A stretch of 32,000 nt of DNA, taken from assembly GCF_000025945.1 (NCBI RefSeq), contig NC_006138.1:1560001-1592000 (forward strand). The letters are read 5' to 3'. The DNA comes from Desulfotalea psychrophila LSv54 (GTDB taxonomy: Bacteria; Desulfobacterota; Desulfobulbia; Desulfobulbales; Desulfocapsaceae). Shown here in pieces: positions 4,317 to 5,923 of the stretch. The notes under the pieces are model-generated. The model saw nothing but the letters and a program-made list of their open reading frames with translations. It was not told where the DNA came from and searched no databases. Within the stretch, counting starts at the first letter, position 1. Each line of letters begins with the position of its first letter. The position numbers and the translations under genes were made by a program.

Positions 4317-4360
4317 TCAGGCCCCTGCAGAATTGTTTAGGATCGACTAGCTCTCCCTTA

Positions 4361-4390
4361 ATCCCCGCCCTTTGGTGGGGATTTTTTTTT
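4361..4390 (+). terminator. Rho-independent terminator downstream of brnQ
   Basis: ATCCCCGCC-cttt-GGTGGGGAT stem (9 bp with one G-U pair), followed by a run of 9 T. Confidence 0.65.
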
Positions 4391-4560
4391 GCCCACCTGT
4401 ACTATACAAAACCCTTATCTACAAAGCGTCTCTGGCAATACCCTCTCCAGATGGTTTTACTTTTGTTTTGGGTATATGACCAAAATACCCTTGACAGCAA
4501 TCTCCGTCGGATCTACAGTTATAGTCAAATGACCAAAACAACTTATCCAGAGGAGGATTG

Positions 4561-5334
4561 ATGCCAAGGCCCAAGCTACCAAGATTTATTGAAATGCATC
4601 CCGAGGTGGAGGGATTTAGCCCGGATGGTATTAGCCATACTGGGGATACCACCCTCTCCATGGAGGAGTTTGAGGCCATAAGGCTCAGTGACTATCTCGG
4701 GCTTGATCAGTCTCAGGCAGCTGAGCAGATGAACATATCAAGACAGACATTTGGCCGAGTATTAAGGCAGGCACGTTTTATTCTCTCTCAGGCCCTGGTC
4801 ACGGGCAAACGCCTCAAGGTTGGGGGTGGTTGCTATAAGATGCAGGGTAGGGGGGGGCGGAGAAGACGTGGCAGAACAACCATAGATCTCAAGGAGGATC
4901 TCATGACTCAGGCAGAACAGGAAAATAGTCAGCTTAATCAGGCGGGCAGTGGCGAGAATGAGCAAAGCCCAGTTCAGGGACCAGGTCAGGGCAGGGGCCA
5001 GGGACAGGCCTTAGGCCAGGGCCAGAGACAGGGCCAGGAACCAGGTCAGGGTCGGGGCTTAGGTCGAGGACCGGGTCAGGGCTTAGGGCAAGGACCAGGA
5101 CAGGGCTTAGGTCAGAGAAGACCGGGCCAAGGTCAGGGCGGTCAGGGATTAGGTCAGGGCTCGGGTCAAGGTCAGGGCTTAGGTCAGAAACCGGGACAAG
5201 GTCAGGGCTTAGGGCAAGGTCAGGGCTTAGGCCAGGGTAGAGGTCAGGGCCAGGGTGGTGGACGCGGCGTGGGAGGAGGACGAGGCCTCGGTTGTGGCAA
5301 GAGAGACGGCAGCTGCAGACAGAACAATAAATAG
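4561..5334 (+). CDS. DUF134/UPF0251-type HTH protein fused to a Gly/Gln-rich hexapeptide-repeat tail
   Basis: ATG at 4561 follows AGGAGG; the track start at 4558 is a TTG one codon upstream. The N-terminal ~100 aa (MPRPKLPRF...EEFEAIRLSDYLGLDQSQAAEQMNISRQTFGRVLRQARFILSQALVTGKRLKVGGG) resemble the DUF134 predicted DNA-binding family. The remainder is an RGGRRRRGR linker plus GQGLGQ/GQGRGQ repeats. Confidence 0.7.
   Translation: MPRPKLPRFIEMHPEVEGFSPDGISHTGDTTLSMEEFEAIRLSDYLGLDQSQAAEQMNISRQTFGRVLRQARFILSQALVTGKRLKVGGGCYKMQGRGGRRRRGRTTIDLKEDLMTQAEQENSQLNQAGSGENEQSPVQGPGQGRGQGQALGQGQRQGQEPGQGRGLGRGPGQGLGQGPGQGLGQRRPGQGQGGQGLGQGSGQGQGLGQKPGQGQGLGQGQGLGQGRGQGQGGGRGVGGGRGLGCGKRDGSCRQNNK
4975..5292 (+). 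repeat. Tandem coding repeat with 18-nt periodicity (ggtcagggcttaggtcag variants) encoding GQG(L/R)GQ units
   Basis: Read directly: repeated ggtcagggc / ttaggtcag / ccaggacag blocks across about 320 nt. The opposite strand gives a mirror SPDL-repeat ORF. Confidence 0.85.
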
Positions 5335-5355
5335 TAAAGTCAGAATTAATAGAAG

Positions 5356-5391
5356 AGCCAATCGCCCTATGAGGTGGTTGGCTTTTTTTTT
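5356..5391 (+). terminator. Rho-independent terminator after the DUF134-repeat gene
   Basis: AGCCAATCGCC...GGTGGTTGGCT hairpin (outer 6 bp perfect, inner pairs include G-U), followed by T9. Confidence 0.6.
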
Positions 5392-5394
5392 GCC

Positions 5395-5417
5395 TGGTCG
5401 GAGTGAGAGGCGATGGC
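5395..5417 (-). repeat. tRNA-Pro 3'-end-like relic (copy 1)
   Basis: tggtcggagtgagaggcgatgg on the plus strand. The first 15 nt are identical to the copy at 6226 and one mismatch from the genuine tRNA-Pro 3' end at 26564 (tggtcggaatgagagg). Confidence 0.45.
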
Positions 5418-5446
5418 CTTTCTCCCAAGGGGAGTCTTTACTAGCT

Positions 5447-5923
5447 CTACATCCAGACGATATACTTATTTTCAAAGTCTATTTTGAAGGGATGTTTCTT
5501 GAGGAAATCCACTCCCAGCAGGCCCCTGTTTTGGGACCCAGATTGCGGGTATGTCGAGACGGTGAAATTGTACTCATGCTCCGTGCTAACCCTTAGCATA
5601 TCCAGCTCCACAGAGCGGCCATAGCATTTTGAACCATTGGCGACCGTTGCCACCACCTTTGGTCCATAGTTAGCTCTCATCCCCTTTAGATATCTATAGG
5701 GGATGGTTGTATGGCTGGAGCCCGTGTCGAGCACCATATAAACCCTTTTGCTTCTGCCTCTATGTCGCAGGGTGACCGGAATAAGTATTTGATTGTTAAT
5801 GATAGTTATTTTGGTGATATTTTTTTTCGCCCTATTGACACTGCTGCCGATATTTTTGCCATTTGCTCCAGGCACAGCTAAAAAGAATAACAGCACAAAC
5901 AGGGATAAAAAACGCATTTTCAA
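5447..5923 (-). CDS. Secreted retropepsin-like (clan AA) aspartic protease
   Basis: 158-aa ORF with a signal peptide (MKMRFLSLFVLLFFLAVPGANG). It has the catalytic-type motif MVLDTGSSHTTIP and a distal GLLGVDFL motif, both typical of bacterial retropepsin-like proteases. Confidence 0.75.
   Translation of the reverse strand: MKMRFLSLFVLLFFLAVPGANGKNIGSSVNRAKKNITKITIINNQILIPVTLRHRGRSKRVYMVLDTGSSHTTIPYRYLKGMRANYGPKVVATVANGSKCYGRSVELDMLRVSTEHEYNFTVSTYPQSGSQNRGLLGVDFLKKHPFKIDFENKYIVWM

Follow-up and report, generated by a model that had tools for sequence, protein, structure and literature searches.

An in-frame fusion of a DUF134 regulator gene with the second gene of its cassette in Desulfotalea psychrophila LSv54

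The window analysed here, a 32-kb stretch (32,000 nucleotides, nt) of the Desulfotalea psychrophila LSv54 genome whose own numbering is used throughout, contains an open reading frame (ORF) that runs on the + strand from the ATG at 4561 to the stop codon at 5332-5334 and encodes a protein of 257 amino acids (aa). The gene is a DUF134 regulator of a Desulfobacterales subfamily fused to the second gene of a conserved cassette, and it retains within its frame the Shine-Dalgarno (SD) sequence and ATG of that second gene. The C-terminal tail evolves by gaining and losing repeats within the frame. In this genome, charge-neutral units have doubled its length, and the DUF5320 gene is absent from its usual position. 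With a probability of about 0.6, we favour the explanation that the first two genes of the cassette have merged, that the retained SD and ATG are likely used, and that the gene possibly regulates its own expression.

Origin of the fused gene in a three-gene cassette

An initial annotation, made from the letters of the window and a list of its ORFs, assigned the first part of the protein to the DUF134/UPF0251 family, and this identity was confirmed. Residues 3-94 match Pfam DUF134 (PF02001) with 80.9 bits (E=1e-22, cut-off 27) over positions 6-97 of the 98 in the hidden Markov model (HMM). The Pfam scan also returned a sub-threshold match to Sigma70_r4_2 (22-24 bits), while the score against the NCBIfam equivalog PRK04217 (NF003257), 48 bits with a cut-off of 115, makes the protein a related non-member. 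In the AlphaFold2 (AF2) model, based on a 76-sequence alignment, residues 1-90 have predicted local distance difference test (pLDDT) scores of 85-98 and form a small helix-turn-helix (HTH) fold resembling sigma-70 region 4. The HTH core superposes on region 4 of extracytoplasmic function (ECF) sigma factors and on the DeoR HTH with a root-mean-square deviation of 0.6-0.8 Å over 39-49 residues. These local superpositions alone are the informative part of the Foldseek comparison, whose E-values are weak (>=0.05) because 150 disordered residues were included. A sequence search of PDB found no DUF134 structure and returned a weak match to the DeoR HTH together with RG-rich matches, namely tails of ribosomal protein S10 and GR dipeptide repeats.

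A protein search through 5.8 billion sequences yielded 178 DUF134 relatives, and DNA was recovered for 80 genome loci. The closest relatives, about 50 proteins of 165-267 aa, have the same layout as the window protein, in which the HTH domain is followed by an R-rich segment, xE(D/E)xM, a polar stretch, a GQGRGQ-type array and GKGDGSCRRGNR. Fused relatives occur in Desulfobacula, Desulfobacterium and Desulfocicer, including the isolates Desulfobacula phenolica and Desulfocicer vacuolatum DSM 3385, and bear the database name "DUF134 domain-containing protein" and nothing more. A long Gln/Gly array attached to this HTH had initially been regarded as unfamiliar. Fused GQG(R)GQ tails are routine among the relatives, which makes the architecture less unusual than it seemed; it is already present in databases, and no description of it was found in the literature searched. 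The majority of DUF134 genes encode short proteins of 107-119 aa with C-terminal tails of the RGxGRRRRRRGGR type.

In Desulfobacterota, such a short DUF134 gene is followed by a gene for a Gly/Gln/Arg-rich protein of 65-87 aa and then by a DUF5320 gene, the product of which has an MPGF(N/D)xxGP start and a coiled coil. Of 78 genome loci, the three genes are separate in 36, DUF134 is directly succeeded by DUF5320 in 19, and 14 are fused. In 40 of the 78, the Gly/Gln/Arg module forms an independent gene behind an SD of its own, and a DUF5320-like gene lies downstream in 69. The last count agrees with an earlier remark that DUF5320-like genes are frequent neighbours of DUF134; the window tail itself, for which a likeness to them had been considered, has no match to the DUF5320 HMM and corresponds to the middle gene. 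As in the cassette, the module of the window stands directly after DUF134, behind GGAGG and an ATG. No DUF5320 gene follows it downstream on the same strand, the next gene being on the minus strand.

The initial annotation proposed a fusion of two formerly adjacent genes as one origin of the locus, and named a stop codon between the two parts in orthologous loci as a point of comparison. Its coordinates, the Arg-rich linker, the AAGGAGG placed 5 nt before the ATG at 4903 and the 143-aa frame opened by this ATG all match the sequence, and the proposal was borne out by the relatives with separate genes, which share the AAGGAGG junction. In unfused relatives the DUF134 frame stops past its Arg-rich end, and the separate Gly/Gln/Arg-rich gene starts behind the same AAGGAGG. 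The stop was found in L009, L018 and L047, where the DUF134 frame reads IKEDxNE-stop through AAGGAGGA and overlaps by 8 nt with the ATG of the middle gene, which lies in another frame. The intergenic SD region of one more relative (L025), if translated hypothetically, gives F-K-E-D-N-L-M. Its counterpart in the window is L-K-E-D-L-M, a reading that continues from the DUF134 frame since the window spacer is 1 nt shorter than that of L009. In the window the SD-bearing spacer continues the reading frame; in the relatives with separate genes it is shifted out of frame or contains a stop. Comparison of the junctions thus identifies the linker as a translated intergenic spacer and Met115 as the former start of the second gene.

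In a neighbour-joining tree of the HTH domain, built on only 96 residues, fused forms are scattered over several clades and have two types of tail. This points to two fusion events as a minimum, with four or more being probable. As is commonly argued from gene fusions, such recurrence would mean that the HTH protein and the tail protein act together physically.

Conservation of the internal start

The perfect AAGGAGG of the window (4891-4897) is encoded by the linker codons AAG GAG GAT and is separated by a 5-nt spacer from the in-frame ATG at 4903, from which a product of 143 aa would be made. When the 21 distinct fused genes were anchored on their conserved internal ATG, GGAGG was found 4-9 nt before it in 19, and AGGAG (L109) or GGGAG (L037) in the remaining two. 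In the clade of the window, the SD is written in the register xxG-GAG-Gxx, preceded by K, G, R or S and followed by D, E or A. In other clades it is written GGA-GGT (Gly-Gly) or AAG-GAG-GTG. Linker codons outside the SD are freely variable. Of 28 fused relatives, 23 have the Met in the same alignment column; three PRGD-type sequences carry it two columns downstream, and it is absent from the conserved column in P0017 and P0021. None of approximately 24 other in-frame ATGs located after residue 98 is accompanied by a GGAGG-type motif.

Synonymous recoding with the codon usage of the genes themselves gave an expectation of 0.04-0.49 motifs per gene. The product over ten lineages is 4e-8, an over-optimistic value in that it treats all ten as fully independent. 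Predicted mRNA accessibility at the internal start lies above the ORF median in 20 of the 21 genes and is comparable to the accessibility of the true start. An SD at a functional distance is in this way conserved beyond coding constraint (19 of 21 genes, two registers), and its presence in two codon registers with different residues points to selection on nucleotides and, through it, to a second, tail-only product. With moderate confidence, based on sequence comparison, we regard the internal SD and ATG as probably under nucleotide-level selection and still in use, which would give products of 257 and 143 aa.

The best-surviving alternative, to which we assign a clearly smaller but real chance, is that the gene has one product only, the 257-aa protein. 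The internal SD and ATG would then be a leftover, or Met115 and the acidic residues preceding it would have been kept for the sake of the protein. Compatible with this explanation are a low-confidence helix predicted by AF2 at residues 109-124, which covers the internal start, and the unremarkable accessibility of this start in the window. In addition, the fusions in L023, L044 and L111 look recent; their sister loci have separate genes, and retention of the SD there may be simple inertia. Against a single product stand the residues that the SD encodes, which vary (KED, KEE, GEE, REE, SEE, KEA, SGG, TGG, KEV) while GGAGG, in two codon registers, and its spacing of 5-8 nt are fixed, the freely variable codons next to them, and the recoding expectation given above. 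The helix itself has a pLDDT of only 52-56.

The Gly-X tail, the promoter region and the surroundings

The array in the tail was initially described as an 18-nt repeat. A periodicity specific to 18 nt did not hold, the base period being 6 nt with irregular higher-order units of 12-30 nt. Self-identity of the window sequence is 0.43-0.54 at all multiples of 6 nt and 0.14-0.22 at odd multiples of 3, and the repeats reported by Tandem Repeats Finder (TRF) and a further repeat search vary in period between 12, 18, 24 and 30 nt, their copies being 60-80% identical. These peaks and mixed periods characterize a degenerate array of Gly-X dipeptides whose higher-order units are irregular. The array is far above chance, as CAGGGCTTAGG occurs 5 times versus 0.01 expected. 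GC skew is +0.26 to +0.41 across 4900-5300, and 26 runs of at least three G are present on the + strand within the 340 nt of 4960-5300. G runs combined with a skew of up to +0.41 make G-quadruplexes possible in the non-template strand and in the mRNA, and such potential may be relevant to transcription or to instability of the array. A 164-aa ORF with P-D-L repeats on the minus strand (4934-5428) was dismissed as the reverse-complement shadow of the Gly-Gln array.

Disorder of the tail, raised initially as a property to predict, is indicated by the AF2 model. From about residue 147 onward pLDDT is mostly below 50 (block means 45-50), and no helix is predicted after residue 124, so the Gly-X array and tail are predicted to be disordered. 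The protein ends in GCGKRDGSCRQNNK, also written GGGRGVGGGRGLGCGKRDGSCRQNNK, with GKRDGSCRQNNK as its closing part. This motif corresponds to the GKGDGSC(R/K)RGNR end of the fused relatives, and the closing part resembles the end of a separate middle protein (...RRRDGSCRKN in L030).

Counted from Met115, the window tail has 143 aa, compared with 42-77 aa in the relatives. About 80 extra residues are neutral units, GQGLGQ, GPGQ and GSGQ, with ten Leu in GQGLGQ units where relatives carry Arg or Lys. Net charge of the tail is +8, within the +4 to +12 of the relatives. The expectation that such a repeat would be prone to copy-number variation proved right: among relatives 91-99% identical over the first 110 residues, tails differ by 1-16 gapped alignment columns, and the array is for this reason recognized as a hotspot of insertions and deletions (indels). 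A metagenome scan for copies from the same species, in which repeat numbers could be compared, found nothing above 67% identity.

It is rather improbable that the tail is neutral low-complexity growth, prone to slippage and functionless, which is tolerated at the C-terminus of a regulator. Indels between near-identical relatives, the absence of positional conservation inside the array and the lack of any homologue when the tail is searched alone all accord with neutral growth. It is harder to reconcile with a module that has been maintained as an independent gene, SD included, in about half of the genome loci (see above) and that has been fused repeatedly. The module also keeps a terminal motif of the [DG]GSC[RK]xxN[RK] type and a narrow net charge despite a two-fold change in length, and its frame is unbroken in 21 of 21 fused genes.

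Two types of middle protein were distinguished, one with the MPRGDGTGP start and the other of the GQG type. Proteins of the first type match the N-terminal half of the DUF5320 HMM (31.1 and 28.4 bits) while those of the GQG type do not, and scanning the middle proteins and DUF5320 against NCBIfam gave no matches. The fused tails of L023, L044 and L111 carry the motif MP(G/R)x(D/N)xxGPxxxGPxTGRGxGxC, as do most separate middle proteins; the window tail lacks it. The window tail is best described, from its sequence, as the middle module of the cassette, whose counterparts in other lineages are similar to the N-terminal half of DUF5320.

A bona fide DUF5320 domain in the tail, which would make the protein a DUF134-DUF5320 fusion, is more doubtful still and for the window largely refuted. 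Some fused tails and middle proteins match the first ~58 positions of the HMM (20.6, 28.4 and 31.1 bits, two of the three above the 27-bit cut-off), and precomputed PF17253 matches exist on P0008 and P0047. In the window, neither residues 115-257 nor the whole protein match PF17253 at E<=1; the tail begins with MTQAEQENSQ instead of the MPxxDGTGPxGxGPxTGRGxGxC start, and it has no C-terminal coiled coil. A complete DUF5320 gene still follows in 20 of 20 other fused loci, indicating that the tail fills the slot of the middle gene and not that of DUF5320. Absorption of DUF5320 by the tail, as in P0008, was also considered and rejected, given the normal middle-module motif at the end of the tail and the missing coiled coil. 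P0008 (213 aa) is an apparent triple fusion of DUF134, a GQG array and the C-terminal coiled coil of DUF5320, with a PF17253 match of 42.8 bits over model positions 13-99; it apparently links all three proteins of the cassette.

In the 20 other fused loci, the DUF5320-like gene lies 29-237 nt downstream. The window is the only one of 21 without this gene after the fusion: an intrinsic terminator occupies the position, and tblastn detected no DUF5320-like sequence in the whole 32 kb.

A sequencing or assembly artefact, either a 1-nt error joining two genes or a mis-assembled long array, is very improbable: the fused and separate states are one nucleotide apart in spacer length, the exact window protein is absent from the public collection, the closest relative found for comparison is not above 80% identity and the tail is twice as long as that of any relative, but the in-frame junction recurs in 20 other independent assemblies (two isolate genomes among them), the frame stays open across 118 repeat-region codons and ends in the normal C-terminal motif of the family, and array copies are 60-80% identical with a longest exact repeat of 20 nt, well under read length, which makes collapse or expansion by a short-read assembler unlikely.

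Upstream regions in the clade of the window align nearly base for base around the promoter and have a common palindromic element, GGTCAWWTGACC. With at most one mismatch, 66 of the 72 matches in 106 loci (823 kb) fall within 200 nt upstream of a DUF134 start, that is, within 2.6% of the sequence searched. When up to two mismatches are allowed, 41 of 101 loci have at least two copies, and the distance between copies is 53 or 54 nt in 36 of 42 cases. In the layout of the family, one copy lies against the -35 element and the other comes directly after the -10 element; copies in the window are 53 nt apart, in agreement with the typical spacing of 53-54 nt. In its simplest reading, this arrangement suggests a candidate autoregulatory operator at which a DUF134 dimer would repress its own promoter. 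No description of the palindrome was found in the literature searched.

Features of the fused gene and its flanking signals are listed in Table 1. Together with a second terminator located 5' of the gene at 4360-4383, they make it look like a single-gene transcription unit.

Table 1. Positions of sequence features in and around the fused DUF134 gene of the window
Feature	Position	Strand	Remarks
Upstream palindrome copy GGGTATATGACC	4470..4481	+	Degenerate, 2 mismatches to GGTCAWWTGACC; just 5' of -35
Sigma-70-like promoter, TTGACA, 17 nt, TACAGT	4491..4519	+	10/12 matches; position kept in 14 related upstream regions
Downstream palindrome copy AGTCAAATGACC	4523..4534	+	1 mismatch; right after -10, over the likely transcription start
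SD GAGGAGGA (4550-4557) and ATG 4561	4550..4563	+	Start of the full-length product
DUF134/UPF0251 HTH domain	4567..4842	+	Residues 3-94; sigma-70 region 4-like core fold
Arg-rich segment RGGRRRRGR	4849..4875	+	Residues 97-105; usual C-terminus of short unfused DUF134 proteins
Linker TTIDLKEDL	4876..4902	+	Residues 106-114; holds the internal SD; basis, comparison with L009, L018, L047, L025 and L030
Internal in-frame ATG (Met115)	4903..4905	+	Former start of the middle gene; a tail-only product of 143 aa may begin here
Polar Q/E/N-rich stretch	4903..4977	+	Residues 115-139; A-rich codons
Degenerate Gly-X dipeptide array	4978..5253	+	Residues 140-231; GQ, GLGQ, GRGQ and GPGQ units; 6-nt base period
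C-terminal motif GGGRGVGGGRGLGCGKRDGSCRQNNK and stop codon	5254..5334	+	Residues 232-257
Intrinsic terminator, 16-bp hairpin then U-run	5351..5392	+	-22.8 kcal/mol, z = -4.6

The gene that follows the terminator (5447-5923, minus strand) is convergent and encodes a retropepsin-like aspartyl protease. Besides it, the flanks contain genes for a BrnQ-type transporter, a solute-binding protein and HD-domain proteins. No gene neighbourhood beyond the cassette is shared with the relatives, and since their flanks differ from those of the window, genomic context offers no functional clue. In two Desulfobacula-type loci (L081 and L109), a divergent ARMT1-like/DUF89 gene (PF01937) adjoins the DUF134 promoter upstream, where the window has the BrnQ-type transporter gene on the same strand.

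Other variants of the tail were observed among the relatives. More distant DUF134 proteins (L085, L088-L095, P0060-P0120, P0082) have, behind the HTH, a zinc ribbon (CxxC...CxxC, Zn_ribbon_8-like) and then a short end rich in RG, and P0049 and P0053 have a C-terminal Cys pair motif in addition to the GQG array. Linkers or tails rich in His and Gly are found in L032 (HGHHHGHHHGHHHGRGHG), L015 (GHGRGRHGRGHGHG), L033, L026, L007 and others, and in the upper clade a conserved Cys of the GGCY motif co-occurs with a Cys at the tail end. The His/Gly-rich linkers and co-occurring Cys hint at metal binding in those relatives; the window protein has no His-rich stretch. A metal-related role of the locus was set aside as too inconsistent, with genes for an Fe3+-type binding protein, CbiK, Zip or ferritin near some loci and His-rich linkers in some relatives.

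Proposed mechanism and comparison with known systems

In the favoured explanation of merged cassette genes, we infer nested products, autoregulation and modulation by the tail from sequence comparison. One mRNA would give the full-length regulator with its tethered tail and, in addition, a free 143-aa tail protein, which we propose with moderate confidence. With lower confidence, the HTH domain would bind two GGTCAWWTGACC palindromes, spaced 53 nt and lying on either side of the -35 and -10 elements, and thereby repress its own promoter. Likewise with lower confidence, the cationic disordered tail, tethered or free, might modulate this DNA binding or link two operator-bound dimers.

Several points weigh against this explanation. 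The 143-aa tail, searched alone against the 5.8 billion proteins, has neither a significant sequence homologue nor a Pfam match, the sole hit being an irrelevant EF-hand (E=8e-4). Low complexity defeats sequence searches, so its identity as the middle gene had to come from synteny, composition and terminal motifs. The length of 257 aa is known from a single assembly, and no relative of the locus above 80% identity was present in the collections searched. How many independent fusions took place is uncertain, the tree resting on 96 residues. Common descent within clades could account for part of the conservation of the SD and ATG, and predicted accessibility at the internal start of the window shows a small excess over the ORF median (0.49 versus 0.45). 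As for autoregulation, the upstream palindrome of the window is degenerate, with two mismatches, and a factor other than the DUF134 protein could be its binder.

A bolder reading, which we consider unlikely, sees the cassette as a self-contained, autoregulatory switch of a hitherto undescribed type. The HTH protein would repress its own promoter from two flanking palindromes separated by five helical turns, and would be controlled by a disordered Gly/Gln/Arg protein made from one ORF in tethered and, via the retained internal start, free form. How strongly the switch acts would be set by the length and charge of the array, both of which change fast through in-frame slippage, and the doubled neutral array in this genome would compensate for the lost DUF5320 partner.

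DUF134 and DUF5320 occur widely among anaerobic bacteria and archaea, and no functional study of either, and no DUF134 structure, was found in the literature searched. The locus and its relatives make DUF134/DUF5320 a testable system, with the palindrome pair as a concrete DNA target. The SD embedded in two codon registers offers a clean natural example of a fusion that apparently keeps the start of the second gene, and the variant in the window, with a doubled array, unchanged net charge and no DUF5320, could reveal the roles of the tail and of the third partner. The practical stakes are modest, amounting to an annotation and a lead on mechanism rather than a new class of system.

Escherichia coli clpB, infB and cheA are known examples of genes in which an internal in-frame start yields a shorter C-terminal product beside the full-length one. 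Similar to them, the window gene has a strong SD and ATG within an open frame that could yield two nested proteins. It differs in that its internal start demonstrably comes from a formerly separate gene, and in that the use of this start is deduced from conservation.

With the DUF134/UPF0251 family (PF02001, COG1342), the window protein shares the MPRPK start, the SRQTFGR recognition-helix region and the Arg-rich end, and it is longer by about 150 residues than typical members of 107-119 aa. DUF5320 (PF17253), a small Gly/Arg-rich protein encoded beside DUF134, is the third gene of the cassette; the window tail differs from it in lacking an HMM match, the MPGF(N/D)xxGP start and the coiled coil. 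Disordered nucleic-acid-binding tails rich in RG/RGG are likewise Gly-rich, cationic and predicted to be disordered; the window tail differs from them in having Gln as its second commonest residue and a low density of Arg, at 11 of 143 positions. A survey of G-quadruplexes in archaea described RG-type motifs, similar to those that bind quadruplexes, in DUF134 and DUF5320 proteins of Methanosarcina mazei (PMC7565180). Closest to the window gene are the fusions of Desulfobacula, Desulfobacterium and Desulfocicer, which have the same order of parts, the internal SD and Met, the GSC(R/K) end and a promoter with palindromes, of which the upstream copy is degenerate in the window; they differ in their shorter tails and in the DUF5320 gene downstream.

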